From Methanobacteriota archaeon (GTDB lineage Archaea; Thermoplasmatota; Thermoplasmata; UBA10834), in assembly GCA_020347645.1 (NCBI GenBank), contig CP070736.1, positions 920,451-943,649 of the forward strand: DNA of 23,199 bases. Direction: 5' to 3'. The notes below the pieces were generated by a model that was given only the letters and a program-made list of their open reading frames with translations, searched no databases and was not told the DNA's origin. Below are positions 1-16,633 of this stretch, in pieces. The translations under genes and the position numbers were made by a program. Within the stretch, counting starts at the first letter, position 1. Every line of letters starts with the position of its first letter.

Positions 1-78
1 GACGACGCGGTTGAGGTTGTGCTCCTTGATCATCTCTTTGATCTTTTCCTGCGTGTCCTGCGAGCAGGTGTACAGGTT
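1..78. repeat. Near-identical 78-nt tract shared by two hdrA paralogues (partner at 3833..3910)
   Basis: Positions 1..45 are identical to 3833..3877, and the next ~33 nt differ at about 3 positions. Elsewhere the paralogues are clearly more diverged. Confidence 0.7.
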
Positions 79-1536
79 CTCTCCGGCGTACACCACATTC
101 GGAAGGGTTCTGGCGTACTCGGCCACAGAAGGCACCTTCACGACTCCTCCTATGTTGATTCCGCAGTGGCATACGAAGACGCCTATCCGCGGGTCCTGGT
201 TAGCGATGTCCAACTCATCTGGGTACTCCTTCTTGGTCACCAAAGTGTTTCTAGCCGATGCAATCTCCGCCCCCGCTTTCGCAGCAGCCCCACTAGCTTC
301 CGCGACGGTCATCGGTATGTCCTTCGGCGAGGAGAAGGCACCACTCACAAAGATGCCCTGCCTAGAGGAGCTGACAGGATCCATCAGCCCCGTCTTGCAG
401 AATCCATCCTTGTTAAGTTCGAAACCCATTATTTCGCTAAGCACCTCCGCGTCCTCTGGCGGTTCGAGGCCAACGGCTAGAACGACGAGTCCGAACTCCT
501 CCTCCTTAGGCTCGCCCTTCTCGACATATCTTACGACCAGATTTCTCGTTGCGGGGTCCTCGAAAACCGATGCAACCCTTGATCGCACAAACTCAATGCC
601 ATATTCATTCTGTGCCCTGTTGTAGTACTCGTCGAACTCCTTTCCAAACGCCCTCATGTCCATGAAGAATACCTTGGGTTTGATGTTGCCTCCATGCTCC
701 TTTGCGATTATGGCCTCCTTTATCGAATACATGCAGCAAACACCTGAGCAAAACTCGTTTCCCACTCGTTCATCTCTGGACCCGACGCATTGGATGAACG
801 CCACCTTCTCAGGGATATCGCCATCTGAGGGGCGCAGTACTGTGCCGAAATACGGACCCGTGGCACTCAACATTCTCTCGAACTCTATGCTTGTCACTAC
901 GTTCTTGTAGACGCCGTATCCGTACTCGCCCTTCCGGCGAGCGTCGAACTCGTCGAAGCCCGGCGATAGGATGATCGAACCGACTTTGATTTCTGAGATG
1001 TCTTCCTTTTGGTCATATACGATCGCTTCCGCCTTGCACTCCTCAGCGCATATACCGCAGCCTATGCATTTGTCATGGTCAATAGAGTACACCAGAGGAA
1101 CAGCCTGTGGGTAGCGAACATAGATCGCTTTGCGTATCTTCGTGTTCTCGTTGTATTCATCAGATGTTTCGATGGGACAAGTCTGGGCGCAAGAGCCACA
1201 ACCTGTGCACTTCGCGGCATCGATCCTCAACGCCCTCTGTTTCACGGTGACGGTGAAATTCCCGGCCTGTCCGTCCACCGCCGTGATGTCTGCATTCGTG
1301 ACCAAGGTGATGTTATGATGCCTGCCTGTCGATACGAGCTTTGGCGCCATTATGCACATCGCACAGTCGTTCGTGGGGAAGGTCTTGTCCAGCTGGGCCA
1401 TCGCGCCGCCTATGCTCGGCTGTTTCTCGACCAGATAGACCTTGAAGCCAGAATCGGCCAGATCAAGAGCGGACTGAAGGCCAGATATGCCCCCTCCTAC
1501 TACCATGACTGCACCGATCTTCTCGGTTGTCGCCAT
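1..1536 (-). CDS. hdrA: Heterodisulfide reductase subunit A-like flavoprotein, tandem-type paralogue (N-terminal 512 codons; gene continues past window start)
   Basis: The minus-strand frame is open from the ATG at 1536..1534 to position 1, with no stop, so it is absent from the ORF track. Translation starts MATTEKIGAVMVVGGGISGLQSALDLADSGFKVY (FAD Rossmann GxGxxG). It is followed by an inserted 2x[4Fe-4S] ferredoxin domain (CTGCGSC...CP, CIGCGICAEEC) and a later PRIGVFVCHCGINIG...CSQD...NRVV cysteine-cluster domain. Domain order matches the 1000-aa ORF at 2365..5367. The ATG overlaps the TGA of the upstream mvhD-like gene. Confidence 0.8.
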   Translation of the reverse strand, partial: MATTEKIGAVMVVGGGISGLQSALDLADSGFKVYLVEKQPSIGGAMAQLDKTFPTNDCAMCIMAPKLVSTGRHHNITLVTNADITAVDGQAGNFTVTVKQRALRIDAAKCTGCGSCAQTCPIETSDEYNENTKIRKAIYVRYPQAVPLVYSIDHDKCIGCGICAEECKAEAIVYDQKEDISEIKVGSIILSPGFDEFDARRKGEYGYGVYKNVVTSIEFERMLSATGPYFGTVLRPSDGDIPEKVAFIQCVGSRDERVGNEFCSGVCCMYSIKEAIIAKEHGGNIKPKVFFMDMRAFGKEFDEYYNRAQNEYGIEFVRSRVASVFEDPATRNLVVRYVEKGEPKEEEFGLVVLAVGLEPPEDAEVLSEIMGFELNKDGFCKTGLMDPVSSSRQGIFVSGAFSSPKDIPMTVAEASGAAAKAGAEIASARNTLVTKKEYPDELDIANQDPRIGVFVCHCGINIGGVVKVPSVAEYARTLPNVVYAGENLYTCSQDTQEKIKEMIKEHNLNRVV

Positions 1537-2363
1537 CAGCGCTCATCCCCCGTCGCGACGGTCCTGTAGACCGGTGTGAATCCTTCGGAGTGTTCCATTG
1601 CGATCTTGCTGTTCTGTCTAAGAAGAACGATGTGTTTCAGAATCCTGTCAGTGGGAACGTCCATGACCATTCCCAGCTGCTTGACCGACATCGGCCTTAT
1701 CCCTGCCAACTCAAGAATGAGAGCCCTCTCAAACTCGTCTACCACAGCGGTATCAATGATTCTTCCGAGTTTCTCGGGATCGAGTTTGTCGCCGTACGCG
1801 TTTCCTTTATTGAGAAGGTTGAACTCCTTCCCTATCAGCGCCTTCAATCTGAAAGTCTCTGAGGCGTTGTCGGCGGAAGCGGCCCTGACCTTCATCATAT
1901 CATCCGTGAGCACTCTACTCGTTCCAAGCCTCCGAATCTCCTCGGTGAATTCCGTGACGACCTTTGAGAACTTCTCTCCCTCAGACGCAGAAATCCATTC
2001 CAGTCTCAGGCGCGCCTCTTCGATGCCAGCTTCTCTGAGCAACCTTTTCATCAGGCCCACGCGTTTTTCCGTGTGGAAATTGCCCGTCATGTAATGACAG
2101 TCATTCAAGTGGCATCCCCCGATTAGGACGCCATCCGCACCTGCTTCGAACAAATCGAGTACGAGGTGCGGGCTGACTCTAGCGGAACACATCACTCTGA
2201 CTAGCCGGATGTTCGCAGGATACTGGAACCTGCTGACTCCGCACAGATCTGCGCCGGCGTACGAGCACCAATTGCACAAGAAGCCGACGATCTTCGGTTT
2301 CCTCTCTTTGCTAACGTCGGCCTGTACTTTGACCCCATGAGGAGGCTGATGCTTATCCGTCAT
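1536..2363 (-). CDS. mvhD: MvhD/FlpD-family [2Fe-2S] protein with a ~130-aa Cys-free C-terminal extension of unknown function
   Basis: 275-aa ORF. Residues ~20-145 carry the MvhD hallmarks FLCNWCSYAGADL...VMCSARV...GGCHLNDCHY. The C-terminal third (ALILELAGIRPMSVKQLGMVMDVPTDRILKHIVLLRQNSKIA) has no Cys and looks helical, possibly winged-helix-like. The stop overlaps the ATG of the next hdrA. Confidence 0.8.
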   Translation of the reverse strand: MTDKHQPPHGVKVQADVSKERKPKIVGFLCNWCSYAGADLCGVSRFQYPANIRLVRVMCSARVSPHLVLDLFEAGADGVLIGGCHLNDCHYMTGNFHTEKRVGLMKRLLREAGIEEARLRLEWISASEGEKFSKVVTEFTEEIRRLGTSRVLTDDMMKVRAASADNASETFRLKALIGKEFNLLNKGNAYGDKLDPEKLGRIIDTAVVDEFERALILELAGIRPMSVKQLGMVMDVPTDRILKHIVLLRQNSKIAMEHSEGFTPVYRTVATGDER

Positions 2364-2364
2364 G

Positions 2365-5300
2365 TCACCCCTCCTCCAAGGCTGCTCTGGCCATTGCGAT
2401 GAGTTGTTGGTCGGTGTAATGCGTCATGGTAATGGCTCCTTCAGGACAGGTGGCGCCGCAGCAACCGCAGCCCTTGCAAGCAGCGACGATCACTTCGCTG
2501 ACACCATCGCTATTCTTCCTCAAGGCGCTGAACGGACACACTTCTACACAAGTCCCGCAGCCTGAGCATTTGTCTTCGTCCACGACGCTTACCACACCCT
2601 CAGCCTCAATGGAGGATTTCGACAACACCGTGTTCACCCTGGCAGCGGCTGCCAGGGCCTGCGATATGCTCTCATCGATGAGCCTTGGCGAGTGCGCAAG
2701 GCCGCACAAGTAGATGCCATCCGTTGGGAAATCGACCGGCCGGAGCTTCATGTGGGCCTCCAAGAAGAACCCCTCCTTGTTCAGAGGGACCTTCAGCAGC
2801 TGCGCGAGGGCTTTGTTGTCCGGGTTGGGATGGACAGCAGCGTTGAGCACCAGATAGTCCGGTTTCAGAACGATTCTCTGCTCGATGAACTGCTCATCAA
2901 CATGTATCTCGATATCGTCTCCGTCCGCCTGCACCTTCGGTGGCGTTGAAGGGTCGTACCTGAGGAACTTGACTCCTAGGCGCGCAGCTTCGTTATAGTT
3001 TTCTTCGGAAAATCCGTAGGTTCTTATGTCTCTGAAGAGGACATACACCTCGGTATCGGGGTAGTCCTTCTTGATGCTTAGAGCGTTTGTCATCGCCGTT
3101 GAGCAGCAGATTCTGGAGCAGTTCGGGTGCTCGTCGTTTCGAGATCCGACACATTGGATTGTCACGATGCTTTTTGCATCGAATTTACCACTCGAGAGCA
3201 TGTCCCCTAGAGCAGTTTGCCTTATCACCTTCGGATGTTTGCCATACAGATATTCCGTGGGCTCGTACTCTATGGCCCCAGTCGCTACTACGATTGCGCC
3301 GTGTTCAATCTTCTCTCCATCCTTGAGGGTGCTCTCAAAGTTGCCGATATAGCCCTTGACGTCCTCGACGGTGTTCCCAAGATGAACAGTGATGTTCTCA
3401 TTGTGCAGCACTTCCTTCCTCAAGATGGCGAGGGTCCTCCGCGGGTCCACCCCGGCGAGAGTGCTGTGTATCGTCCTGAGATGTCCGCCAAGTTCTTTGC
3501 CCTTCTCGATTAGATGGACTTCGTATCCGGCCTTCGCAATCTCTAGGGCGGAGGTCATTCCACTTAGCCCTCCCCCGATTACGAGCGCGGCCGGCGTTAC
3601 GGGAATCTTGGGCTGTTGGAGCGCCTCAAGTCTGCTTGCTTTGGCTACCGCCATCCGCACGAGGTCCTTAGCCTTCTCCGTCGCAGCTTCGGGCTCCAGT
3701 CGATGGACCCATGAGCATTGATCTCTGATGTTAGCCATCTCGAACAGATATTTGTTCAGCCCCGCCTCTCTTACTGTGTTCTGGAACAGCGGTTCGTGTG
3801 TTCTCGGTGTGCAGCTAGCGACGACGACGCGGTTGAGGTTGTGCTCCTTGATCATCTCTTTGATCTTCTTCTGCGTGTCCTGAGAGCAGGTGTATGTGTT
3901 TGTCTCCGCGTAGACAACTCCTGGGAGTTTGGATGCGTACTCCATCACCTCCGGAACATTCACGACCGATCCAATGTTGATGCCACAATGACAAACGAAG
4001 ACACCTAGTCGCGGTTCCTGATTCGATAGGTCCATTTCTTCAGGGTATTCCTTCTTCGTAACGAGCTTTCCTCTTTGATCCGAGAGGAGAGCGGCAACTT
4101 TGCCCGCTGCGCCGCTCGCCTGGGCTATCGAGTCTGGGATGTCCTTTGGACCGGAGAACGCCCCACATACGAATATCCCAGGCAATGAACTGTCGACCGG
4201 CGAGAGTTCGTCGGTTTCGCAGAAACCGAACTTGTTGGTCTTGATCTTCAAGATCTCTGCGAGTTTGTGGGACATTTCCGGCGGCTCGGCACCGGCCGAG
4301 AGGACAACCATGTCAAAGGTTTCCTCGGAGATGTCAGCAGCGTCTATGAAGCTCAGAGAGAGATCATGGGTTTCCTTGTTCTGCTGAACTCCCGATATCC
4401 GATTGTTCCTGAAGACCCTGACGCCGTATTCGCTCTCCGCTCTCTGAAGGTACTCTTCGAACTCCTTTCCGAACGCACGTGTGTCCATGAAGAACATAGT
4501 TGTTTCGAGTCCAGGCAGATGCTCCTTGGCAATCACCGCTTGCTTCAGCGCCGCCATGCAACAATATGATGAGCAATAGGAATTGGGGGTCTGAGCGTCT
4601 CTCGATCCCACGCACTGAATGAATGCGATGCTCTTCGGCACATCGCCATCTGAAGGTCTGATGACGTGTCCTTCAGTGGGACCAGAAGCGCTGAGCATCC
4701 TTTCGAATTCGATATTGCTGACCACGTTCGCATAGACTCCATGGCCGTACGCGCTTTTCTTGGATGCATCAAACACTTGGTAGCCTGGAGCAAGGACGAT
4801 TGCGCCAACCTCCATCGTTTCGTCGATTTCAGAGTCCATATCGTATTCGATCGCATTCGCCTCGCAGAATTTCTCACATATGCCGCAACCGATGCACAAG
4901 CCTTTGTCGATAGTGTAGACTAGCGGCACTGCCTGAGGAAAAGGAACATAGATCGCCTTGGCCGGGGCGAGATCCCGTTCAAAGGAGTTTGCACCCTCGA
5001 TGGGACAGTGTTCAGCACAAATCCCACAGCAGGTGCACTTATCCTCGTTGATGAAGCGCTGATGTTTCGTGACCGTTACGCTAAACCTGCCCACTTCCCC
5101 TTCGACTTTCTTCAGCTCGGCGTTCGTAATAAGGGTGATGTTCTCGTGTCTTCCCGTGGCAACCAACTTCGGAGAAAGTATGCACATTGAGCAATCGTTT
5201 GTCGGGAAAGTCTTGTCCAACTGGGCCATCGTCCCTCCGATGCTGGGCGTCGTCTCTAATACGTAGACCTTGTACCCGGATTCCGCGAGGTCCAGTGCGG

Positions 5301-5367
5301 CCTGCATCCCGGCTGGTCCTCCGCCCACGACCAAGACCGCTCCGACAACTTCCTTCTTAGCCATCAT
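2365..5367 (-). CDS. hdrA: 1000-aa HdrA-like flavoprotein with two FAD/thioredoxin-reductase-like modules
   Basis: 1000-aa ORF. It has an N-terminal GGGPAGMQAALDLA FAD motif, an inserted ferredoxin (CTCCGICAEHCP, CIGCGICEKFC) and a central VFVCHCGINIG...CSQD...ASCTPRTHE...DQCSWVH cluster domain. A second Rossmann module follows (ALVIGGGLSGMTSALEIA ... CVGSRN ... CCST), then a C-terminal 2x[4Fe-4S] ferredoxin (CSGCGTCVEVCP, CKGCGCCGATCP). The ATG overlaps the TGA of mvhD (ATGA). Confidence 0.85.
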   Translation of the reverse strand: MMAKKEVVGAVLVVGGGPAGMQAALDLAESGYKVYVLETTPSIGGTMAQLDKTFPTNDCSMCILSPKLVATGRHENITLITNAELKKVEGEVGRFSVTVTKHQRFINEDKCTCCGICAEHCPIEGANSFERDLAPAKAIYVPFPQAVPLVYTIDKGLCIGCGICEKFCEANAIEYDMDSEIDETMEVGAIVLAPGYQVFDASKKSAYGHGVYANVVSNIEFERMLSASGPTEGHVIRPSDGDVPKSIAFIQCVGSRDAQTPNSYCSSYCCMAALKQAVIAKEHLPGLETTMFFMDTRAFGKEFEEYLQRAESEYGVRVFRNNRISGVQQNKETHDLSLSFIDAADISEETFDMVVLSAGAEPPEMSHKLAEILKIKTNKFGFCETDELSPVDSSLPGIFVCGAFSGPKDIPDSIAQASGAAGKVAALLSDQRGKLVTKKEYPEEMDLSNQEPRLGVFVCHCGINIGSVVNVPEVMEYASKLPGVVYAETNTYTCSQDTQKKIKEMIKEHNLNRVVVASCTPRTHEPLFQNTVREAGLNKYLFEMANIRDQCSWVHRLEPEAATEKAKDLVRMAVAKASRLEALQQPKIPVTPAALVIGGGLSGMTSALEIAKAGYEVHLIEKGKELGGHLRTIHSTLAGVDPRRTLAILRKEVLHNENITVHLGNTVEDVKGYIGNFESTLKDGEKIEHGAIVVATGAIEYEPTEYLYGKHPKVIRQTALGDMLSSGKFDAKSIVTIQCVGSRNDEHPNCSRICCSTAMTNALSIKKDYPDTEVYVLFRDIRTYGFSEENYNEAARLGVKFLRYDPSTPPKVQADGDDIEIHVDEQFIEQRIVLKPDYLVLNAAVHPNPDNKALAQLLKVPLNKEGFFLEAHMKLRPVDFPTDGIYLCGLAHSPRLIDESISQALAAAARVNTVLSKSSIEAEGVVSVVDEDKCSGCGTCVEVCPFSALRKNSDGVSEVIVAACKGCGCCGATCPEGAITMTHYTDQQLIAMARAALEEG
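3833..3910. repeat. Partner of the 78-nt hdrA-hdrA identity tract at 1..78
   Basis: See the feature at 1..78. The tract encodes the ...HNLNRVVVASCTPRTHE... segment of the Cys-cluster domain. Confidence 0.7.
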
Positions 5368-5810
5368 TGTGCACTCTCCTCGGAAATCGGACCGAGCGCT
5401 TCTAGTTCCGTCACCATCTGTTTAACAACGTCAGCGAATTTGTGTCCCTCAGAACCTGCAATCCATTCAACTCTGAAGCGTTGTGATTCTATCCCCGCAT
5501 CCTCTATGAACTCTGATAGGAAATCCCCTCTTATCGCAGTCTTCTCGTTGCCGTTTATGTAATGACAGTCGGAGGGATGACATCCAGCGATGATCACGCC
5601 GTCCGCTCCGAGCGAGAATGCTTTGAGCACGAAGGCCGGATCGACCCTGCCGGAACACATAACCCTTATGATCTTGACATTCGTGGGATACTGCAGCCTA
5701 GTTGTTCCTGCCAGGTCTGCGCCCGCATATGAGCACCAATTGCAGCAGAAAGCAACAATCTCTGGATTGTAGGCGGGTCGTTCTTCCCGGAGATTCGGAT
5801 GTCCATCCAT
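5364..5810 (-). CDS. mvhD: Methyl-viologen-reducing hydrogenase delta subunit-like protein (MvhD)
   Basis: 148-aa ORF with FCCNWCSYAGADLAG, RVMCSGRV and AGCHPSDCHY motifs typical of MvhD. Sits immediately upstream of hdrA, with a 4-nt ATGA overlap. Confidence 0.85.
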   Translation of the reverse strand: MDGHPNLREERPAYNPEIVAFCCNWCSYAGADLAGTTRLQYPTNVKIIRVMCSGRVDPAFVLKAFSLGADGVIIAGCHPSDCHYINGNEKTAIRGDFLSEFIEDAGIESQRFRVEWIAGSEGHKFADVVKQMVTELEALGPISEESAQ

Positions 5811-5812
5811 GG

Positions 5813-6730
5813 TTAGGTCCCCCTGAGCTTTCTGATAAACGAGTGTACAGAGACGTGATGCGTGTCAAAGCCGAGCGAGTTCGGATCGACCCCCATCGCG
5901 ATGGCCTGGAACTGGGATATGTGCATCACAGGTATCCCCTCCTTAGTGAAGGATTTCTGCGCGTTGTCAAATTGGAGGAGACAGAATGGACATCCCGTGA
6001 CTATGCAGTCCGCTCCGGCATCTGCGATCTTCCTACACTTGTCCTCAGTAATCGAATTGGCCAGCTCCACTACATGGGACCGAACACCGCCGCCGGCGCC
6101 GCAGCAGTCCAACTTGTCTTCGTATTCGATGCTGGTCGCGCCGCATTTCTCTATGATTAGGTCTATGTTGACCGGGTCGTTCGGGTCGTCAATCGTTTGC
6201 TTCTCGGTTGGTCTCAGGTAGTGGCATCCATAATGCACCGCGGCGCGCACATTGCTGAGGGGCTTCCTCGTCCTCTCTGCAATGGTTTCGAGACCAACAT
6301 CATTGATCATGACATCAACATAGTGTCGTACTTTCACTGGCCCCATCACTCGCCGTCGCCCCTCGGTCTTTGTGGGGATTCCAATGTACTTCCTGCCAAT
6401 CTGGGAGAGCACGCGGTTCACCCTGCCGAGGTTCTTTGGGTCGGCGAGGTTCTCGGTAGCTTTGAGCAATGAGGTGAGACAGCCGTTGCAGACGGTGAGG
6501 ATCTCCCTCCGCTCATTCTGAGCGAGCGTCAGGTTTCGCGCAGCTATAAGCAGCCAAGTCCTTTTGTCAGAGGAGTAGAATATGCCTGGAACGGGACAGC
6601 AGGAAAACTCCTCGATGTCCTCTACATCCAGGTTGAATCCGTCGCTACCGCAAACCCACCTGACAGCGTACTCTATGCCCGGATATCGGTTGGGTATGAC
6701 ACAGCCGAAGAAATAGGCGTACTGCGTCAC
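5813..6730 (-). CDS. hdrB: Heterodisulfide reductase subunit B (two CCG domains)
   Basis: 305-aa ORF beginning [18 protein letters not shown]. Contains both cysteine-rich CCG signatures (CCPVPG...C...CNGC and CCGAGGG...CPFC). The start codon is GTG and overlaps the hdrC stop (GTGA). Confidence 0.9.
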   Translation of the reverse strand: MTQYAYFFGCVIPNRYPGIEYAVRWVCGSDGFNLDVEDIEEFSCCPVPGIFYSSDKRTWLLIAARNLTLAQNERREILTVCNGCLTSLLKATENLADPKNLGRVNRVLSQIGRKYIGIPTKTEGRRRVMGPVKVRHYVDVMINDVGLETIAERTRKPLSNVRAAVHYGCHYLRPTEKQTIDDPNDPVNIDLIIEKCGATSIEYEDKLDCCGAGGGVRSHVVELANSITEDKCRKIADAGADCIVTGCPFCLLQFDNAQKSFTKEGIPVMHISQFQAIAMGVDPNSLGFDTHHVSVHSFIRKLRGT

Positions 6731-7311
6731 CCCCTCACCTCACTCTCTATGCCTATGAGCCTGTCATAGCCCGTGGAACGAACCAGCAGGTTAATCTCAC
6801 GTACGACTTTCGCGTATCCTCGAGTGCGCGACGGCATGTCTTCCAGGTCGAGCTCCCTCCTGACTCGCTCAATCTCAGAGTCAGGTTTGACGCTTTGGCC
6901 GTACTCGACGAGGTTTGTCGCAGCCAACTTGATGAAGGGTGGTATGACACCCTCCTTTATTGCCATGTGTCTGAGCGCTATCATCACTTCAGCAGGGTTT
7001 ATGTCGGCAGGGCAGTATTCATAACACCTGTAGCAGGTAGCACAGACCCACCTCATCTCAAGCGTGAACTTCTTAAGCCCAAACTGACAGAATTTGATTA
7101 TGCTTCTGGTCTTGTAGTCAATCTTGAGACTTATTGGACAGACGCCCGTGCAATTCCCGCATTGGAGACAAGTCATCACATCTTTGCCTCCATGCTTCAC
7201 GATTTCTTTGGCGAAATTCGGTTCAAGGTGCGACTCATCAATGATTTTGTCCTCGGCCAACTTCTCATGAAGGCCGCCTATGAATGTCTTCTCTACTTCT
7301 CCCATGATCAT
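6727..7311 (-). CDS. hdrC: Heterodisulfide reductase subunit C (2x[4Fe-4S] ferredoxin)
   Basis: 194-aa ORF with [12 protein letters not shown] and [12 protein letters not shown] motifs. The ATG overlaps the hdrA TGA (ATGA). Confidence 0.9.
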
Positions 7312-9473
7312 GCACCCTCCGCCCTATTCGCATCTTTCTTTGTCTTGCCGGCCGCCCTGCCAACACCTCCAAGGGCTGACGCGATTTCCGAAGTTATCTG
7401 CTCATCAGTGAACTGGTTCGCCGCTATGGCTTTTTGCGGACACGCCGGGACACAAGTCCCGCATCCATGACAGAGCGCTTCCACGATCTTCGCTTTTGAG
7501 CCCGTCTCGCTTTCGTGGACTTCCGGCGCGCCATAAGGACACATCTCAACGCACAGCCCGCATCCGACGCAAAGCTCTTCATCGACAATTGCTGTCAGAG
7601 GTTCAATTCTAACCTGTTTGCCAGCCATGATTGCGGCTGCGGATGCCGCAGCCGCTTTCGCCTGGGCCACCGAATCTGGGATGTCCTTGGGACCCTGTGC
7701 GCATCCCGCGAGGTATATGCCATCGATGGCGGTGTCGACAGGTCGGAGCTTTGGGTGCGCTTCCTGAAAGAATCCATCAGAGCTGAGAGAAAGCGGCAAG
7801 ACCTTGCCAATCCTCTTGCTTCCCTCGGACGGTTTGAGCCCCGTCGCTAGAACAATCAGGTCGAACTCCCTCTCCGTGATCTTGCTGAGCAGGGTCTCCT
7901 CCGCTCTTATCGTGATGGAGCCGGTTTCCGGATTCTCACTAAGCTTTGCTGGCCGACCTCTTATGAATTCAATTCCGTACTCTTCTCTAACGCGATGGTA
8001 CAGTTCCTCGAAGCCCTTCCCAAACGCTCTGATGTCATTGTAGTAAACAGCGATATCGGTGTCGGGTTGGTGCTCCTTGATTATCTGCGCATTCTTGATT
8101 GTATACATGCAGCAGACCCGCGAGCAGTAGGCGGATCCCAACTTCCTGTTCCTCGATCCTACGCATTGGATGAATGCAACCCTCTTTGGCGGCTTTCCAT
8201 CGGATGGTCTGATGAAATTCCCTCCAGTAGGACCCGAGGCGTTTATCAATCGTTCGAGTTCCAGGCCTGTTATGACGTTCCGGGACTCCCAATACCTGTA
8301 AACATCCCGCTTCTTCGGGACATATATGTCGAAGCCAGTGGCGCAAATGATCGTGCCGACTTTCAACTCAATTTCATCGTCGACAATTTCGTAATCTATT
8401 GCATCGTTGGAGCAAGCCTTGACACAAGCTCCGCATTTGCCGGTCTTGAAGTGAATGCAGTTCTCTCTATCGATCGTATACTTGAGCGGGACCGCCTGTG
8501 GAAAGGGAACGTAGATTGCCTTCCTCTTGCCAAAGCCTAGGTCGAACTTGTTGTCGACTTTGACCGGGCATGCGTCGGCACACACTCCACACCCGACGCA
8601 CTTGCTCTCATCGACATAGCGAGCCTTCTTCCTGACCTTCACATTATAATTGCCTATGAACCCGTGGATTTCTTCGACCTCGGAATATGAAAGGAGTGTG
8701 ATGTTTGGGTGCCTCGATAGCTCCACCATTTTGGGGGCCAATATACATATGGCACAGTCTCCCGTCGGAAAAGTCTTGTCCAATTGGGCCATGCGGCCGC
8801 CAATACTCGGCTCGGATTCGACGACGTAGACTTTAAATCCCATCTCCGCCAGGTCGAGTGCGGCTTGGATCCCCGCCACTCCTCCCCCAATAACCAGTGA
8901 CGATTGCTCTACGGGCACCTCTCTGGCCTCAAGCGGTTCTAGCCTTGCAGCCTTTGCTACCCCCATTCTCACTAGACCGATCGCCTTCTCAGTAGCCTTG
9001 TCTTTCTCTCGGGAGTGCACCCAAGAGCACTGCTCTCTGAGATTTACCATCTGCAACAGATACGGGTTGAGGCCAGCCTGCTTGACACAGTTCCTGAAAG
9101 TCGGTTCATGCATCCTTGGAGAGCACGCGGCAATGACAACTCTCTCGACCCCATTCTGTTTGATTGCAGAAATTATCTCATCCTGTCCAAGGTCTGAACA
9201 GGTGTACTTATTCTCTTTGGCAGTGACAACGCCCGGCAGCTTCTCTGCGGCCTCCCTGACTTTTGACGGATTAACGGTGCCTGCTATGTTGCTGCCGCAA
9301 TGACAGATGAAGACGCCTATACGCGGATTCGAAGAGATGCTATTCACCTCTCTCGCCGTTTCTCCGACTCCGTTTTCTCCGAGCGACTCATATGAATTCA
9401 CATCATCACTCCATGCTAAGACCGGCATTACTTCGTTTAGTCCGAGTAATCCCGCAATTACCGTTAAGCGCAA
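7308..9473 (-). CDS. hdrA: Heterodisulfide reductase subunit A, classical domain order (N-terminal Cys-cluster domain, FAD domain, inserted ferredoxin, C-terminal ferredoxin)
   Basis: The ORF-track start at 9473 is a TTG. In-frame alternatives are ATG at 9428 and a GTG at 9401 preceded by GGAGTGA, and the true N-terminus is probably one of these. Sequence shows [16 protein letters not shown]...CSDLGQ...AACSPRMHE...EQCSWVH, then [35 protein letters not shown]...CSRVCC, and C-terminal [12 protein letters not shown]...[12 protein letters not shown]. Confidence 0.9.
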
Positions 9474-9541: not shown

Positions 9542-9556
9542 TTAATATAGCTTTCG
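9542..9556 (-). promoter_or_regulatory. Candidate archaeal BRE/TATA element for the hdrACB-mvhD operon
   Basis: The minus strand reads CGAAAGC-TATATTAA (purine-rich BRE followed by an 8-bp TATA) inside the only AT-rich stretch of the window. It lies 70-115 nt upstream of the candidate hdrA start codons. Confidence 0.3.
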
Positions 9557-9826
9557 TTGTCAATATTTCTAAAAACGCATTGACGTCTGCGATAATTGTT
9601 AACAGGTCTCCTTAAGAAGGCCGGCAAGTGTACAGTAATGTATTCGCATATTCGAAGTCCAGTTTTCTGGATATGCGGTAGATTTGACAATCTTACACAC
9701 TTGTCGGCATTTTTAGGCAAATCAATAGCATCCCCACCCACTCCTCATTAGGAAATTCGCAACCATCACATCGCTTTACATTTGGGAAGATCGCTCACAT
9801 TCGCATTTCTTTCTGATGATAGGTCT

Positions 9827-10918
9827 TCAAGTCTTGTCGAGTCTTGTACGACGGTATCTGTGCGAGATATGGCAACTCCCTTCGCGCGAAACCATGCATG
9901 GTCCAATAGGATTCTCCGGAGTACATTTCCTGTCAAACAGTGGGCATTCCTCGCTTGTTATGATGCCCCGTAGAATCTCGCCACACCTGCAACCATCAGG
10001 CTCTATGCATTCCGCGTCTGCGGCGGCAGCAATTGTATCAGAGAAACGCTTGCTGGCATCGTGAATCTCAAGCTCGTTCTTCACCGACATCCCACTTTCG
10101 GGGATCACAGGGAATCCACGCCAGATAGCGTCTGTCGGCGTAAAAGCATCCCTAATAGCCTTCAGCGCCGTCGGGTTTCCGGCTGGTTTCACCACTCGCG
10201 AGTATTCGTTCTGCACCTCGCCCCTCCCCTCGGAGTGCTGTTTGGCCAAGAGGTAGACAGCCACCATGAGATCGAGGGGCTCGAAACCGGCCACAACCTG
10301 AGGTATTCCGTACTCTTCCGACAGAAATTCGTAGGGCGCGGTGCCGATAATTGCGCTCACGTGGCCAGGTTGAATCATGCCGTGGAGCTTTATCTCCCCC
10401 ATCGAAGATATCGCTCTCAGAGCCGGGGGAACGATTCTATGGAAACTCAGAACAGAGAAGTTATCCGGCGGACTCGATAGAAGGGCCGTAGCCGTTGTGG
10501 GCGCAGTTGTCTCAAAGCCGATTCCTACGAAGACCACCTCACCATGCGATTGTCTGGCAATATCAACCGCGTCGTCCACGCCGAAAACGATTCTGACGTC
10601 TCCTCCCTCGGCTTTGATGTCCCCGAGCGATTGCCTCTTGCCAGGAACTCTCATCAGGTCCCCGAATGCTGCTATAGTTATTCCAGCCCTTGCGAGTGCC
10701 ATCGTCGTTTCAATCTCCTGCGGTGGCGTTATGCACACCGGGCATCCTGGTCCTTGACGAATATCGATTCCGACTCTTTGAAATTCGCTGTCAAGACCGA
10801 ACCTGACGAGGGTGTCTTGGTGGGTGCCGCAAACGTGCATGAGGGTGATGTCGAGCCTCATCTCTTTCAGCTCTTTCAGTATCTTTTGGGACATCTCCCT
10901 GTCTCTCAGCCTAAACAT
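9827..10918 (-). CDS. hypD: [NiFe]-hydrogenase maturation factor HypD
   Basis: 363-aa ORF with MHVCGTHQD, GPGCPVCITP, FETTAP and a C-terminal Cys cluster (CRCG...ECPLF...C). Starts at ATG; overlaps hypA by 8 nt. Confidence 0.9.
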   Translation of the reverse strand: MFRLRDREMSQKILKELKEMRLDITLMHVCGTHQDTLVRFGLDSEFQRVGIDIRQGPGCPVCITPPQEIETTMALARAGITIAAFGDLMRVPGKRQSLGDIKAEGGDVRIVFGVDDAVDIARQSHGEVVFVGIGFETTAPTTATALLSSPPDNFSVLSFHRIVPPALRAISSMGEIKLHGMIQPGHVSAIIGTAPYEFLSEEYGIPQVVAGFEPLDLMVAVYLLAKQHSEGRGEVQNEYSRVVKPAGNPTALKAIRDAFTPTDAIWRGFPVIPESGMSVKNELEIHDASKRFSDTIAAAADAECIEPDGCRCGEILRGIITSEECPLFDRKCTPENPIGPCMVSREGSCHISHRYRRTRLDKT

Positions 10919-11285
10919 CCGGCACCACCATAGCGATGTTCCTTATGACGCAGTCACGGCCGCCTGTGACCTTTGCGAGATCCCCGCATCTTGGGCATTC
11001 GAACGCAGAAGCCAGAGCATGGGGCCTGTCGTTCGATGGCGACGTCTTTCCTCTGAATCCGCAGCTGCATTCAATCTCGCCATCCACGGTTTGCAGGTCC
11101 AAGATCGCCCCTTCGAGCAGGGTATTCTTAGACAACACTTCGAAGGCGAATCTAAGCTGATAGTGCCCGAGCATGGTGAACTCTCCCAGCTCGACTGTGA
11201 CCCTCTCTATCCTGGACGCGTTCCTGCTTTTCGCCTCATCGATTACGCTGGTGACTATTTCGCTCATAACGGAAAACTCATGCAT
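10911..11285 (-). CDS. hypA: Hydrogenase nickel-insertion protein HypA
   Basis: 124-aa ORF. Begins MHEFSVMSEIV (conserved MHE). Has two zinc-site motifs, CSCG and CPRCG. Confidence 0.85.
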   Translation of the reverse strand: MHEFSVMSEIVTSVIDEAKSRNASRIERVTVELGEFTMLGHYQLRFAFEVLSKNTLLEGAILDLQTVDGEIECSCGFRGKTSPSNDRPHALASAFECPRCGDLAKVTGGRDCVIRNIAMVVPDV

Positions 11286-11288
11286 GAC

Positions 11289-11516
11289 TCAAGCCCCGGC
11301 ATCGTCCTGCGTAAGCAGCTCCCTAAACAGTTGGAGAGTTTTCTCCGCCTCCTCTCTGTCGAGTACTTCAATCGCGTATCCAGCATGCACTATGACGAAA
11401 TCTCCGACTTTGGCGTCGACGAGCGATATGTTCACAGATCTCGCGACTCCTCCGAAGTCGGCTTTTGCCACTGCCCCGTCTATGGTTATGATTTCTGCCG
11501 GAACAGCAAGGCACAT
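11289..11516 (-). CDS. hypC: Hydrogenase assembly chaperone HypC
   Basis: 75-aa ORF beginning MCLAVPAEII (HypC signature N-terminal Cys2). Confidence 0.9.
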   Translation of the reverse strand: MCLAVPAEIITIDGAVAKADFGGVARSVNISLVDAKVGDFVIVHAGYAIEVLDREEAEKTLQLFRELLTQDDAGA

Positions 11517-11551
11517 CGCAGCGTCATTATGAATGGTTCGTTCATAAAGTT

Positions 11552-13759
11552 TTAGCCGAGCAGGCTGCCAGCTATCGCGTTTTGACCTGTGGATATGCCA
11601 CCGTCTCCGTTTGGAACTCGCTCGTGGGTCACAAAGAAGAGACCATTCCTTGAAATCGTTCGCTCAACCCAATTCGAAATTGGATTGCTGTATGAGACTC
11701 CTCCAGTCAAGCCCACATTCGAGAACCCCTTCTTCTCCGCAATCTCGCAGGCTTTTTCAGCAAGCGCTGAGACAAGCGAGCAAACGAAAGACGCCGCCAC
11801 ATCAGCCTTTTGAGTGTTTGTGTCCATGCGTGTTTCTAGTATTCTCGCGAACATCGGCACTGTCTCCGCGTACTCAATCCCATTCCGCACTCCGAACTTC
11901 ACCTCGAAGTCGTTGCTGACGCTACCTTTCTCCAGCCATCTCTCGAGCTTGATTGCCGGCTCCCCCTCGTAAGTCCGTTTGCAGGAGAAGCCGAGAATGC
12001 AGGATAAAGCGTCGAGTACGCGACCCATGCTGGACGCCTTGACGCTGTTACCCATCATCTTGGAGTAGATGTCCACCTCCTCAGAACGAACGAGCGTCGG
12101 CTCCAACCCTATCATGAGTTGGAGAGCAGTGACAACTCTTCTGGGGTCTAATACGGCTTTATCTCCTCCCAGCAGAGGTAAGCCCTGCAACGTGCATAGC
12201 CTCTTGTATTTCCGGAAATCGGCGAGCAATGTCTCACCGCCCCATGATGTGCCGTCATCACCATAGCCAGTCCCGTCCCAGGCCAGGGCGACGATGGGCT
12301 CGAAGACCCTTCGATCTATCATGAGTGAAGCAGCGTGAGCGTGGTAGTGTTGCACCTCCACCATCTGACAGCCGTGTTCCTCAGCCAGTTGTCTAGCCAT
12401 TATTCTCGTAGAATATCTGGGATGCTTATCAAGGGAAATCGCATCAACATGCTCGGTTCCAAGCAATCCCGAGAGGTGACGTATTGCATTCCCTAGGTAT
12501 TGAAGCGTAGGGTGTTGTTGCGATTCTCCAATGTATTGGGTAAGGAATATCTCCCTGTTTCGGGTGATTGAGCCCGTGACATCCCATTGAGCTCCCACTC
12601 CTATGACAGTCTTGTCGTGATTCGCCTCAAGAGGGAGCGGCACAAATCCTCGGGATTTCCTAATGAAGCTGAGGTGATCGCCCCGCGGTTTCACAACGCT
12701 GTCGTCGCATCTGTGAATTATCCTGCGGTCGTGTAGCAGGTAGCAGTCTAATCCGAGTTCGAATGCCTTCGAGTTTTCCACCACCATCGGCTCTCCGGGC
12801 GGGTTCGCAGATGTCATTATCACCGCGTCCGCTTCCAGATGTGCGAATAGCAGCATGTGCGCAGCGGAGTAGGGCAACATGATACCCACATTATCCAAAC
12901 CCGGTGCAACCCCTTCCAGTGCCGACATTACCTCTTCCTTCTTCTTCAGGAGCACGATCGGTCTCTGGGGTGATCTAAGCACCCTTTCCTCGGCTTCGCT
13001 GACGTAGGCGTACCGCTTCGCGGCCTCAATGTCCCTTGTCATTATCGCATACGGCTTGTCTCCACGACGGTAGATCTTCCTCAGTCTCGGCGAACTTGCG
13101 AGTGCACAGACTATGTGCATCCCACCCCATCCCTTCAGAATGCCTACCCGCCCGTCATCGATATTTCTGGCGAATTCAAAGAAAGGTTCTCCTGCGACGA
13201 CCTCCCCGATGTGATCACGCAGCTCGTATGTCGGACCACATTCAGGGCAAGAGATTACCTGCGCGTGAAACCGCCTGTTCTCAGGATATTCATATTCGTC
13301 TAGGCAGGACTCGCACATTCTAAAATCCGACATACTGGTCCTGTCACGGTCGAAAGGCACACCCGTGATGATCGTGAACCGTGGTCCGCACTCAGTGCAA
13401 TTGGTGAATGGGTATCGATGTCTCTTGTCAGTGCATCTTTCGAAGTCGTCAACGCAGTTACCGCAAATCGCGGTGTCGGTGGGGATGAGGGATTCCTTTC
13501 TTCCCTCTCTGCTCCCCACTATCGAAAAGCCTTGTTGACCGCAATCGTACTCCTCAATCTCCACCCGGTCGATTCTCGCGAGTGACGGCAGCGCTTTCCT
13601 CAACCTCTTGAGGAACTCGTCGACGTCGCGATCCACGCAAATCTCCGCGTTCGAACCGTTGTTCAGAACATAGCCGTTGAGTCCCATCGCTCTGGCCACT
13701 CTGTATACAGTTGGTCTGAACCCAACACCTTGGACAACGCCGTAAACAGTAACTCTCAT
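11552..13759 (-). CDS. hypF: Carbamoyltransferase HypF
   Basis: 735-aa ORF. Has an acylphosphatase-like N-terminus (VYGVVQGVGFRPTVYRVA), two CxxC...CxxC zinc-finger pairs, and YrdC-like and Kae1-like domains. Strong SD (GGATAGGAG) upstream of the ATG. Confidence 0.9.
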   Translation of the reverse strand: MRVTVYGVVQGVGFRPTVYRVARAMGLNGYVLNNGSNAEICVDRDVDEFLKRLRKALPSLARIDRVEIEEYDCGQQGFSIVGSREGRKESLIPTDTAICGNCVDDFERCTDKRHRYPFTNCTECGPRFTIITGVPFDRDRTSMSDFRMCESCLDEYEYPENRRFHAQVISCPECGPTYELRDHIGEVVAGEPFFEFARNIDDGRVGILKGWGGMHIVCALASSPRLRKIYRRGDKPYAIMTRDIEAAKRYAYVSEAEERVLRSPQRPIVLLKKKEEVMSALEGVAPGLDNVGIMLPYSAAHMLLFAHLEADAVIMTSANPPGEPMVVENSKAFELGLDCYLLHDRRIIHRCDDSVVKPRGDHLSFIRKSRGFVPLPLEANHDKTVIGVGAQWDVTGSITRNREIFLTQYIGESQQHPTLQYLGNAIRHLSGLLGTEHVDAISLDKHPRYSTRIMARQLAEEHGCQMVEVQHYHAHAASLMIDRRVFEPIVALAWDGTGYGDDGTSWGGETLLADFRKYKRLCTLQGLPLLGGDKAVLDPRRVVTALQLMIGLEPTLVRSEEVDIYSKMMGNSVKASSMGRVLDALSCILGFSCKRTYEGEPAIKLERWLEKGSVSNDFEVKFGVRNGIEYAETVPMFARILETRMDTNTQKADVAASFVCSLVSALAEKACEIAEKKGFSNVGLTGGVSYSNPISNWVERTISRNGLFFVTHERVPNGDGGISTGQNAIAGSLLG

Positions 13760-13769
13760 CTCCTATCCT

Positions 13770-14420
13770 CTAGAGCTCCAGTGCCGATAGAAGATCATCG
13801 ACTCCAGTTCCATTTCGAGCATCCATGGCGATGATGTCCGCCTTCGGGTTTGCCTTCCTCGCATCTCCTTCGAGCGTTTCGATGTTGACTTCCATAGCAT
13901 CAGCCAGCCCAATCTTGTTGATTACTATGATATCCGAGAAGGCGAAAATTGCGGGATGTTTTCTAACCATATCATCCCCTTCCGTGACGCTTATAACGAC
14001 AATCCTCTTGTGCGATCCAAGCGGGAAATCGACCGGACAGACCAGGTTTCCAACATTCTCGATGAAGAGGTAATCGAGCTCACTCAACGGTAGCTTCTCG
14101 AGCGCGTGATCAACCAGATGCGCATCGAGGTGACATTCTTTGCCTGTGCTTATGTTGACTCCGGGTATGTCATGTGATACGAATCGTCTATAATCATCGT
14201 CTCCTGATACGTCACCGGAGATGGCGGCACACTTCTTGCCCTTCGCTTTCAGCCGATCTATCAACCTCTCGATTATCAGCGTCTTGCCGGAGCCTATGCC
14301 TCCGAGGAAATCGAACGATCGAATGCCGTGCTCATCGAGCAAAGCCCTATTCTGTTCCGCCAGTTTCCTGTTGGCAGAGAGGATATTCTTCTCTAGGTCA
14401 ACGTCGACAGTCTTGTGCAT
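13770..14420 (-). CDS. hypB: Hydrogenase nickel-incorporation GTPase HypB
   Basis: Has Walker A GGIGSGKT, ENVGNLVCP, and a GDD...Y motif. I placed the start at the in-frame ATG at 14420 (MHKTVDVD). The ORF track extends to a TTG at 14486, but the extra 22 residues are not HypB-like. Confidence 0.85.
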   Translation of the reverse strand: MHKTVDVDLEKNILSANRKLAEQNRALLDEHGIRSFDFLGGIGSGKTLIIERLIDRLKAKGKKCAAISGDVSGDDDYRRFVSHDIPGVNISTGKECHLDAHLVDHALEKLPLSELDYLFIENVGNLVCPVDFPLGSHKRIVVISVTEGDDMVRKHPAIFAFSDIIVINKIGLADAMEVNIETLEGDARKANPKADIIAMDARNGTGVDDLLSALEL

Positions 14421-14516
14421 GTTGTTGAGAAGCAGCCTTCTCGGAATAATCTTTTCGCCCCAAATGTGTGCCGCCGTTATCGGCAAGTGTTGAATTCTGC
14501 TACCTACTCTCCATCA

Positions 14517-14858: not shown

Positions 14859-16508
14859 ATGACAAGTAGGAAAGTTGGCGAAACTGCGGTCCTTGCGGGA
14901 GTACTTGCGTTCCTGCTGGCATTCGCATCATTGAGCTTCATTGCGACCCCTGTCAGCGCAGCTCTGACAGGGGAATGGGTTGAAGAGACGTCCATGGGTG
15001 GGCCACGGGCGCAGGCCGTTATACTCTATGATGCGGAAGGAATCGCCTATGTGATAGGAGGAGTGAACAGCACATTACCCTACAGTGCAACGAACGAGAC
15101 AAATTCCTACGACTTGGATACAGGGTCGTGGGATTCCTTGGCTCCATTGCCATTTCCAACAAGGGGAGCAGCTGGCGCTGTGGGTCCCGACGGAAAGCTG
15201 TACATGTTCGGCGGAGAATACCCGGAAGACGCGGTCCAGATATATGACCCCGATTCCAATTCATGGCACCTTGGAACCAGCATGCCGACAGGCGTCTGGC
15301 AGGGCAGGGCAGGCATGGGTTACGATGGTATGATATACGTTATGGGTGGTGTCAATGGAACCTCCGGCATCACGGATTCGGTGCAGATCTACGATCCTAT
15401 GCTGGATTCATGGTCCCTGGGAGCCCCGATGCCCTACGCTCGAAACTCGGGGGCTCTCGTGAGCGTCTACGAGGGAAGCGGCTTCTATTACTTGGGAGGC
15501 AGCACCGTCTCATGGACTGACAGCAGCGCCACGGTCTACGTCTACTCAGTGGATGGAGACTTTTGGTACGGACTTGGGGATGAGATGCCAGTAACCGTGG
15601 CCTCGCAATCGTGTGCTATTGCCGTTGACGGGAACATCTTCGTGATGGGCGGCGGGGCCGATGGATACAACGTCGGCCCGGGTTATGACACAACCTATTG
15701 GTATGACACGTCTGATGGCGATTGGCACGACGGCCCCGCCCTCCCGGTCGGTGTGAGGCACGCGGGCGCTGTCGCGACTCCCGAGGGAATGCTCTACTTC
15801 TTCGGAGGCAACAACGATACGGATGTTATGAGCACCGTTCTCTCTCTTGAGGTCGCGCATTTGGAAGTTACCCTCTCGGGAACACCAGTGGCCCAAGGCG
15901 GTTTCTTGAATCTCGGGATCACGCTGGATTTAGCATTCGCACACCCGGACGGCTACTATGCAGACGCATATCTTATTTCGGACTCTGGAACTGTGCATTC
16001 AGTGTGGGAGGTCTGGGTCCCTGTCCTTGAACCCGCGGAGTTCGTGTTGGATATCCCGGCCGCAACGCCCGCAGGCGATTACACACTCGTTGTGGACGTG
16101 GGATTCTATCCATCGGACTTCCCAGAGAAGTCATTAGACGTAACCGTGACAGATGCATACACGTTCGAGGAGCAACTGGAGATGTTGAGGGCAAACTTGA
16201 CCGAACTCCTGGACGCTCAGGCGACGGACATCGCGGATCTTGAGGCGGCGCTCGACGCCCTGGAGGCTCAACTTTCCGACGCCGACGGCAACATCACCGA
16301 CTTGCAGACTCAGCTGGACGAGCTGCAGGATGTCCTGACCGAGATGCAGGAATCCATGAACGACGTACAGACATCGGTGGACAAGAAGACCGACAACTCT
16401 CTACAGTATGCCGTCATTGGCCTGCTCATCGTAGTCATCGTCCTCATGGTTCTCATGATGATCATGGGCCGCAGGCCTGGCGCGTCACCGCCTCCTCCTG
16501 ATGCGTGA
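14859..16508 (+). CDS. Secreted Kelch-repeat beta-propeller protein with coiled-coil stalk and C-terminal transmembrane anchor
   Basis: 549-aa ORF. Signal peptide MTSRKVGETAVLAGVLAFLLAFASLSFIATPVSA, then six repeats of the Kelch pattern (YDxxxxSW...MP...R...). Then an acidic Leu-heptad segment (LEMLRANLTELLDAQATDIADLEAALDALEAQL) and a terminal helix VIGLLIVVIVLMVLMMIMGRR with a Pro-rich tail. Confidence 0.8.
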   Translation: MTSRKVGETAVLAGVLAFLLAFASLSFIATPVSAALTGEWVEETSMGGPRAQAVILYDAEGIAYVIGGVNSTLPYSATNETNSYDLDTGSWDSLAPLPFPTRGAAGAVGPDGKLYMFGGEYPEDAVQIYDPDSNSWHLGTSMPTGVWQGRAGMGYDGMIYVMGGVNGTSGITDSVQIYDPMLDSWSLGAPMPYARNSGALVSVYEGSGFYYLGGSTVSWTDSSATVYVYSVDGDFWYGLGDEMPVTVASQSCAIAVDGNIFVMGGGADGYNVGPGYDTTYWYDTSDGDWHDGPALPVGVRHAGAVATPEGMLYFFGGNNDTDVMSTVLSLEVAHLEVTLSGTPVAQGGFLNLGITLDLAFAHPDGYYADAYLISDSGTVHSVWEVWVPVLEPAEFVLDIPAATPAGDYTLVVDVGFYPSDFPEKSLDVTVTDAYTFEEQLEMLRANLTELLDAQATDIADLEAALDALEAQLSDADGNITDLQTQLDELQDVLTEMQESMNDVQTSVDKKTDNSLQYAVIGLLIVVIVLMVLMMIMGRRPGASPPPPDA

Positions 16509-16590
16509 GGTGCGCGTAAATGTCGATGAATCGGGTGGAGAGACAGGCGTAATCCGCTGAACGCTCAAGAGGGATTGATTTCCCTCGCTA

Positions 16591-16620: not shown

Positions 16621-16633
16621 ATTGTCTCACAGC

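Follow-up and report, generated by a model that had tools for sequence, protein, structure and literature searches.

HdrA-dependent, flavin-based electron bifurcation serves anaerobes as a central energy-saving route. Fused forms of HdrA are widespread, and BamE, from the class II benzoyl-CoA reductase of G. metallireducens, is so far the only one with a structure. Cryo-EM presented BamE as a fused HdrA dimer in which the flavin adenine dinucleotide (FAD) of the N-terminal TrxR domain is bifurcating (Cys59-Cys62, Lys280) and the second FAD does not bifurcate (Gln768); BamF, an MvhD lengthened by more than 100 aa, carries a winged helix-turn-helix (wHTH), and BamD is an HdrBC fusion (bioRxiv 10.64898/2026.04.10.717634). 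For anaerobic methanotrophic archaea (ANME), fused HdrA proteins of more than 1000 aa have been described, along with HdrA genes in tandem that complement each other in Cys197 and the N-terminal domain, partners of the HdrD type and NfnB/GltD inserts, and the HdrA of the Moorella MetFV-HdrABC-MvhD system is likewise a two-HdrA fusion with a complementary Cys197 and N-terminal domain (PMC9012536). HdrA proteins have been sorted into classes I, Ia, II and III, and clusters of type I HdrA, type II HdrA and HdrD were proposed to carry out two bifurcations; about 75% of the surveyed type II HdrA proteins retain K409 and E356, and both TrxR domains were suggested to be able to bifurcate (PMC12054007). 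Duplicated-HdrA fusions, with up to six copies per genome, occur in Asgard and TACK archaea (PMC11237513). In studies on Thermoplasmata that are not methanogenic, "multiple hdrABC/mvhADG homologues" are named but not told apart. Here, we analyzed a stretch of 23,199 nt from contig CP070736.1 of a Thermoplasmata archaeon (hereafter, the window), which carries a string of seven hdr and mvhD genes beside maturation genes of [NiFe]-hydrogenase.

Overall, after comparing this string with its relatives, we propose that it encodes several self-contained bifurcating modules that are co-transcribed and made together with a hydrogenase, rather than one proven mega-complex, a reading that we hold with moderate confidence. 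The window appears to cover the leading two thirds of a large hyp-hdr-mvh operon that is conserved and widespread among uncultured Thermoplasmata, present here in a shortened and recombined copy. In our view, the most informative feature of the locus is an in-frame recombination between paralogues that paired a bifurcating core with a different MvhD adaptor.

Genes were called from a six-frame listing of open reading frames (ORFs) with translation, followed by Pfam and NCBIfam scans. The string lies on the minus strand and begins with a canonical (type I) hdrA (7308-9401, 697 aa from a GTG; the mechanical ORF spans 7308-9473 from a TTG), which matches PDB 5odc_A at E 3e-265. It continues with hdrC (6727-7311, 194 aa, TIGR03290), hdrB (5813-6730, 305 aa, with two copies of the Pfam CCG domain and a TIGR03288 match) and a short form of mvhD (5364-5810, 148 aa, Pfam FlpD at E 4e-53, VhuD-like in the NCBIfam scan). 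A fused hdrA of 1000 aa (2365-5367; Pfam, NCBIfam), identical in sequence to the database protein UCE80434.1, is followed by an extended mvhD (1536-2363, 275 aa, Pfam FlpD at E 9e-53) and by a second fused hdrA (1-1536). According to its translation and its orthologue in the closest related locus, the window edge leaves the first 512 of about 1013 aa of this last gene; these 512 codons specify a complete TrxR half that runs into the beginning of an HdrA N-terminal domain, and the gene is therefore of the fused type. Regular-expression checks found two complete Cx(n)CCx(n)CxxC (CCG) motifs for non-cubane clusters in HdrB and two [4Fe-4S] motifs, CxxCxxCxxxC, in HdrC. The minus-strand order and the gene identities given in a preliminary description of this DNA were confirmed by the ORFs and both family scans, as were three HdrA paralogues, one canonical and two fused, with two MvhD genes in one tight string and an MvhD-type gene after each fused HdrA.

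Scans of genome and metagenome collections returned 95 related loci, numbered here with the prefix L, and L096, a stretch of a complete chromosome (CP070748.1), was added by exact-protein look-up. The 95 loci were annotated by BLASTP against the window proteins and a few reference ORFs (Hdr, Mvh and Hyp), and called genes were used for L019 and L096. A recurrent Thermoplasmata order, also found on CP070748.1, runs hypB, hypF, hypA, hypD, hdrA, hdrC, hdrB, mvhD and fused hdrA (1011 aa), then an MvhD-HdrC/HdrB fusion (531 aa), an HdrA N-type gene (431 or 901 aa), an HdrA C-type gene (625 aa) and extended mvhD. After an optional further pair of fused hdrA and extended mvhD, seen at 13 loci, there follow a fused hdrA (1013 aa), mvhD (153 aa), a gene for a wHTH protein (127 aa), mvhG (338 aa), mvhA (504 aa) and a maturation protease gene, with hypE next on the other strand. 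The first fused hdrA is directly followed by the MvhD-HdrCB fusion at 28 loci, and mvhG was seen in 40 of the 43 loci that extend beyond the last fused hdrA. The hydrogenase subunits of the relatives have VhuG and VhuA as their best matches. In the closest locus, L020, the orthologue of the second fused HdrA has 1013 aa and is 89% identical, and mvhG and mvhA are present downstream; most probably, the mvhAG genes of the present genome lie just left of position 1. The preliminary description correctly noted that mvhAG is absent from the window, but this is most probably an edge effect, as 40 related loci, the complete chromosome among them, have these genes downstream of their second fused hdrA. 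The gene order of the window was shared by none of the 95 related loci.

Even in the closest relative, three genes separate the first fused hdrA from the extended mvhD. In the window these are missing, and the 3' end of the fused hdrA matches the end of the relatives' 625-aa HdrA. Protein and nucleotide alignments placed the crossover at codons D930-C934 of the sequence VVDEDKC (2566-2580, minus strand). Upstream of it, nucleotide identity is 80-93% to the fused-hdrA orthologues and 37-63% to the 625-aa paralogue; downstream, it is 21-50% to the former and 77-87% to the latter. Therefore, the last 66 residues come from the 625-aa paralogue, whose partner, the extended mvhD, now adjoins. These residues hold both cluster motifs, with all eight cysteines, of the C-terminal ferredoxin domain (aa 935-1000 plus stop, 2365-2565, minus strand; motifs CSGCGTCVEVCP and CKGCGCCGATCP). 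Recombination between the regions coding for the C-terminal ferredoxin domains of the two paralogues thus appears to have removed about 5.3 kb, and the genes lost would be the MvhD-HdrCB fusion, the HdrA N-type gene and most of the 625-aa HdrA gene.

The C-terminal ferredoxin domain is the site at which MvhD-type adaptors deliver electrons (PMC9012536; bioRxiv 10.64898/2026.04.10.717634). Because this domain faces MvhD, the recombination retained a matched pair of domain and adaptor, and the MvhD-facing domain of the hybrid HdrA would now fit the extended MvhD encoded directly after it. What it seems to have discarded is the HdrCB module and the pair of HdrA N-type and 625-aa proteins, the N-type member having a GltD/NfnB insert in the closest relatives. 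Five database orthologues of the 1000-aa HdrA retain the native C-terminus. In the relatives' first fused HdrA (L014 10001-13036, L020 1-2841, P0002 and others), this native ferredoxin domain has the unusual motifs CxGCGRCExxCEYGA and CKGCGSCAxxCC, without a Cys-Pro ending; the swapped domain in the window has canonical CxxCxxCxxxCP motifs. A fusion of two mvhD paralogues by deletion was also considered and rejected, as the 275-aa MvhD is orthologous over its full length to the relatives' extended MvhD.

To describe the HdrA proteins, we rebuilt the residue numbering of 5ODC chain A by alignment and aligned the canonical HdrA and both halves of the fused proteins to it. The canonical HdrA aligns to 5odc_A over residues 5-646 and keeps all Fe-S cysteine positions, GGGxxG, C194/C197, E356 and K409. 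Each fused HdrA has two TrxR/FAD cores per chain and contains the N-terminal, inserted-ferredoxin and C-terminal-ferredoxin domains once each. In the 1000-aa protein, the N-terminal half (aa 1-440; 4048-5367, minus strand) has a TrxR/FAD core with GGGxxG, the CxxC pair C59/C62, the Glu, K275 and its own [4Fe-4S] site, as well as the inserted ferredoxin domain with two clusters. The C-terminal half up to the crossover (aa 441-929; 2581-4047, minus strand) starts with the HdrA N-terminal Fe-S domain, followed by a second TrxR/FAD core; missing from this half are the CxxC pair, the inserted ferredoxin domain, and E356 and K409, in whose place stand G and T760. The N-terminal halves of the fused proteins carry four TrxR-cluster cysteines and eight inserted-ferredoxin cysteines and are devoid of the N-terminal and C-terminal domains. 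For the second fused HdrA, the CxxC, the E/K pair and the inserted-ferredoxin cysteines are present in the N-terminal half encoded in the window, and the C-terminal pattern was confirmed through the L020 orthologue. Judged by these motifs, the N-terminal half is predicted to bear the bifurcating flavin and the flavin of the C-terminal half to be non-bifurcating. Given this distribution of motifs between the halves, each fused HdrA amounts to two unlike HdrA units covalently joined, with a single flavin predicted to bifurcate. The "multi-flavin" bifurcation suggested in the preliminary description was accordingly overstated, given that E356/K409 and the CxxC pair are found only in the N-terminal half of each fused HdrA.

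The TrxR cores of the N-terminal halves are 57% identical to each other and 46-49% identical to that of the canonical HdrA; those of the C-terminal halves are 54% identical to each other and 34-38% identical to the canonical one, and identity between N-terminal and C-terminal halves is about 30%. Therefore, the fusion is old and common to both fused paralogues, and it does not stem from a recent duplication of the adjoining canonical gene. A repeat search found no sign of a recent hdrA duplication: the hdrA copies are 61-82% similar, which is the level of paralogues, and the sole identical stretch is 26 nt within conserved coding sequence. This stretch is shared by the two fused hdrA paralogues (10-35 and 3832-3857; in the terminator-scan listing, the identity spans 33 nt) and codes for part of KEMIKEHNLN, whereas identity in the flanking DNA is no more than 71-79%. 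Either gene conversion over a small tract or simply strong conservation may account for it. An AlphaFold2 model of the whole 1000-aa chain reached a predicted template modeling score (pTM) of 0.82, and a Foldseek search with it against the PDB returned HdrA chains only (5odc_A, TMt 0.77; 8rwn_A, TMt 0.89); the PDB copy searched contained no fused HdrA structure.

Both MvhD proteins carry the FlpD domain with the [2Fe-2S] cysteines. The AlphaFold2 model of the 275-aa form has a predicted local distance difference test (pLDDT) score of 80 and a pTM of 0.80, and in residues 150-270 the 10-residue pLDDT means range from 82 to 98. In a Foldseek search, the first 150 residues (MvhD domain, about aa 1-150; 1914-2363, minus strand) match 5odc_D at E 8e-12 with 54% identity, and the last 125 residues (about aa 151-275; 1539-1913, minus strand) match wHTH proteins of the ArsR/SmtB type. 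This extension is homologous to the relatives' stand-alone protein of 127 aa (hhalign probability 99.6%, E 6e-25), which is encoded between mvhD and mvhG and has a weak Pfam HTH_5 match. The occurrence of the wHTH adaptor in both fused and split forms argues for a role as a subunit and against one as a regulator. Within the extended MvhD family, the first Cys of the CCNWC of the short form is replaced by an invariant Leu (FLCNWC) in all 45 aligned homologues, and the same 45 of 45 possess an additional invariant cysteine, C41, in the region of residues 28-41.

The seven genes are tightly packed. Their successive junctions are ATGA (the hdrA/hdrC overlap), GTGA (the hdrC/hdrB overlap), a 2-nt spacer, ATGA, a 1-nt spacer and TGATG, and a GGAGG-like purine tract resembling a Shine-Dalgarno (SD) sequence stands just before every start. 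Of the statement in the preliminary description that all these genes are translationally coupled, the tight packing, with overlaps or spacers of at most 2 nt, held up; the coupling itself would fit such junctions, and we infer it from them. No spacer between the seven genes is able to hold a promoter, and neither a promoter nor a terminator was found between the hdrA/mvhD pairs, the only conserved promoter-like block lying upstream of hdrA. A scan for sigma-70 promoters and intrinsic terminators gave counts within about 1 standard deviation of the shuffled expectation, although such bacterial models are not applicable to archaea.

Upstream of hdrA, likewise on the minus strand, Pfam identified the [NiFe]-hydrogenase maturation genes hypB (13770-14486), hypF (11552-13759), hypA (10911-11285) and hypD (9827-10918), which together span 9827-14486; this neighbourhood is kept in relatives, with synteny in L009, L012, L013 and L014. 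The hyp genes had been said to follow the hdr genes directly, but in the direction of transcription they come first, and they are set apart by a gap of 353 nt without an ORF, or 425 nt up to the GTG start of hdrA. This hypD-hdrA spacer, compared between the window and four relatives, could for the most part not be aligned; the main block of near-continuous identity lies upstream of the hdrA start at 9542-9579 (minus strand, TGCGTTTTTAGAAATATTGACAACGAAAGCTATATTAA; alignment consensus CTGCGTTTTTCGAAAyATGrACAACGAAAGCTATATTAA). With a B recognition element (BRE)-like sequence at 9551-9558 (AACGAAAG) and a TATA-like sequence at 9542-9549 (TATATTAA), both on the minus strand, the block resembles an archaeal BRE and TATA box and may serve as the promoter of hdrA. 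In the same alignment, the GTG at 9401 is the start conserved across relatives and yields 697 aa, as in L014; it is likely the start of hdrA, and the TTG at 9473 is probably unused. Further elements conserved in relatives lie upstream of the TATA-like block at 9589-9660 (minus strand), among them TTAAC(A/G)ATTATCGC at 9589-9602 and a repeated TTCGAATA / CGAATA motif at about 9640-9655. These elements could be a binding site for a regulator of the hdr-mvh operon.

We return to what the operon may encode. In the mechanism we favor, the modules would be produced alongside an Mvh-type [NiFe]-hydrogenase of group 3c. The canonical HdrA-HdrC-HdrB with its MvhD would be module 1. In modules 2 and 3, a fused HdrA resembling BamE would each time precede an MvhD adaptor that has a wHTH docking domain; this domain is fused in the 275-aa MvhD and is the separate 127-aa protein in the last module of the relatives. 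Electrons from H2, the presumed donor here, would reach the bifurcating FAD in the N-terminal half of the fused HdrA by way of MvhAG and then MvhD. From this flavin, the low-potential branch would leave through the inserted ferredoxin domain to ferredoxin, and the high-potential branch would run to a CCG protein of the HdrBC type that would reduce a disulfide. The gain and loss of modules among relatives supports their independence. Several points weigh against this proposal. After the deletion, one HdrBC set remains near three HdrA proteins, which also fits sharing within one assembly. The Hdr proteins all fall under their NCBIfam equivalog cut-offs (bits versus cut-off: HdrA 678/1400, HdrA2 955/1100, HdrB 313/345, HdrC 116/160). 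The database holds no second copy of the chimeric gene. Additionally, mvhG and mvhA are not in the window, and the link to H2 rests on relatives at 77-89% identity.

An unlikely alternative, close to what the preliminary description proposed, is that the three HdrA proteins, both MvhD proteins and the single HdrBC form one hydrogenase-fed, multi-flavin supercomplex, perhaps performing two serial bifurcations. The seven genes with overlaps or spacers of at most 2 nt behind one conserved upstream promoter-like block are in keeping with it, and in this genome only one HdrBC is present for three HdrA proteins. There are also precedents: BamE is the dimeric core of a supercomplex with two coupled bifurcation modules (bioRxiv 10.64898/2026.04.10.717634), two bifurcation events were proposed for clusters of type I and type II HdrA (PMC12054007), and megadalton Hdr assemblies are reported from methanogens. 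However, individual modules vary among the relatives while the rest is kept, as seen in the optional pair at 13 loci, the insert variants and the three-gene deletion in the window. Each HdrA unit has its own MvhD-type adaptor, and the relatives possess a second HdrCB, fused to MvhD, beside the first fused HdrA, which suggests self-contained modules. A single complex is thus not indicated by modules that are gained and lost in this way.

It is equally improbable that the locus encodes a true methanogenic CoM-S-S-CoB heterodisulfide reductase from a methanogen related to Methanomassiliicoccales. In favor of this, HdrA2, CoB_CoM_SS_B and CoB_CoM_SS_C are the NCBIfam models that match best, the lineage lies within Thermoplasmata, and a related string with a fused HdrA at 55% identity occurs in a metagenome-assembled genome of Methanomassiliicoccaceae (L017). 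However, none of the scores reaches its equivalog cut-off, and close homologues of the fused HdrA are found in sulfate reducers, Planctomycetota, Asgard archaea and Bathyarchaeia. Moreover, Thermoplasmata orders basal to Methanomassiliicoccales have hdr and mvh without mcr (10.1101/2020.03.09.984617).

Slightly less credible than either is a combined proposal, in which the canonical and the two BamE-type HdrA proteins share HdrBC in one hydrogenase-driven assembly with coupled or serial bifurcations and, at the same time, the exchanged unit of ferredoxin domain and MvhD-wHTH acts as a portable donor-docking "plug".

We also doubt, more strongly, that the chimeric HdrA and the extended MvhD are decaying leftovers in a locus whose canonical HdrABC-MvhD and hydrogenase-proximal module still work. 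In favor of decay, the fused HdrA has lost its cognate MvhD-HdrCB partner, the extended MvhD has lost its cognate split HdrA pair, and no second case of the arrangement occurs among the 95 related loci. However, neither ORF is disrupted, every Fe-S ligand and FAD motif is retained, including the eight cysteines of the swapped domain, and the crossover is in frame and in register. The SD-like sequences and tight junctions persist as well, and identity to orthologues is 81-84%, similar to that of the neighbouring genes.

Least probable of all is that the deletion and the chimeric hdrA arose in assembly, through a false join of paralogous regions of a locus that is complete in the real genome: the junction does fall within a stretch similar between paralogues, there is no second contig with the junction, and at least one related long contig (L019) has frameshift errors, but the relatives' paralogues share only about 18 nt there, imperfectly, a length insufficient for k-mers or long reads to collapse, the flanks diverge similarly from the relatives (about 10-25% in most 30-nt windows) and thus do not resemble two mixed strains, and a join that is in frame and in register over such a short similarity favors real recombination.

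Several observations on the relatives deserve mention beside the proposed modules. In otherwise syntenic loci, the HdrA N-type gene carries a GltD/NfnB-like NAD(P)H insert at 12 loci, where its product has about 901 aa, and lacks it at 39 loci, where the product has about 431 aa; therefore, the NAD(P)H link is optional within the lineage. The sole sizeable gap within the relatives' operon is a spacer of some 160 nt that sets the MvhD-HdrCB fusion apart from the HdrA gene after it (L014 14628-14790, L096 5246-5408). This spacer belongs to the sequence deleted in the window, and it is a possible internal promoter. In L019 (10001-13501; ENA contig_15047, 762 kb), frameshifts split the fused hdrA (667 + 353 aa) and mvhD (90 + 49 aa) in a pattern typical of error-prone long-read assembly. 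To judge from this one case, such errors may lie behind some "partial" homologue entries on long contigs. Selenocysteine recoding was rejected as the source of the "partial" homologues of the second fused HdrA, as the one case examined, in L019, is a frameshift and the window genes have no in-frame TGA. Literature searches found no paper on the relatives' accession numbers and none that describes this particular locus.

Elsewhere in the window, the neighbours at 14859-21526 seem unrelated to the hdr cluster. They include a 549-aa Kelch-repeat protein, a 213-aa protein with a C-terminal ferredoxin domain, a NosD/beta-helix protein, a 236-aa protein without a Pfam match at E <=1e-5 and a 475-aa SPFH/Band 7 protein. 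Rfam and tRNA scans of the window gave no matches.

BamE/BamF-like modules beside an Mvh-type hydrogenase offer a concrete hypothesis for many "hdr/mvh" genes of the sediment Thermoplasmata, which are abundant. The in-frame swap of the MvhD-facing ferredoxin domain amounts to a natural experiment on partner specificity and could guide both modelling and biochemistry. The locus also calls for caution, as a fused HdrA or a long MvhD is not assignable to methanogenic Hdr or to benzoyl-CoA reductase by homology alone.

Set beside the known systems, the locus has likenesses to each of them. With MvhAGD-HdrABC of methanogens (PDB 5ODC), the canonical HdrA, HdrC, HdrB and short MvhD agree at all cofactor sites, and the relatives' operon ends in VhuG/VhuA-like hydrogenase genes. 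In contrast to that system, the window adds two fused HdrA genes and a long MvhD to the string, its Hdr proteins score below the equivalog cut-offs, its host is an uncultured member of the Thermoplasmata, and hydrogenase genes are absent from the window. The type II and III clusters of ANME and methanogens share with it an HdrA of about 1000 aa made of two type I classes, with complementary Cys197 and N-terminal domain, as well as extra genes for type I HdrA, HdrD-like proteins and MvhD and, in the relatives' 901-aa gene, an NfnB-like insert. Unlike in those clusters, the partner here would be a hydrogenase and not FdhB or a molybdopterin protein, and the host belongs to Thermoplasmata; the C-terminal half also differs from the type II HdrA survey in that it is without E356 and K409, hence only one half is predicted to bifurcate. 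The Moorella MetFV system resembles the locus in having a fused HdrA beside HdrBC and MvhD (PMC9012536), but metFV is absent from the window and did not turn up in the partly annotated related loci.

A further likeness is to BamDEF. C59/C62 and K275, with T760 in the second core, are matched by the published description of BamE, the extended MvhD has a wHTH extension of more than 100 aa as in BamF, and the relatives' HdrBC-fusion partner corresponds to BamD, though there it is fused to MvhD. In contrast to BamDEF, the donor module would be an Mvh-type hydrogenase, and there is no selenocysteine. BamB/BamC (tungsten AOR) and BamGHI (a HydABC-like NADH/ferredoxin module) were found neither among the window ORFs nor among the called genes of L019 and L096, the other 90-odd loci having been screened only with Hdr, Mvh and Hyp references, with which BamB-like genes are undetectable. 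The preliminary description regarded the subunit composition as undescribed, yet its kinds of subunit are known from ANME, Asgard and TACK archaea, Moorella and BamE/BamF. Judged against the published description, the window proteins reproduce the BamE/BamF pattern almost position by position. We suggest that the parts are of known kinds and that what is new is their combination with an Mvh hydrogenase in Thermoplasmata, together with the recombinant form found here.

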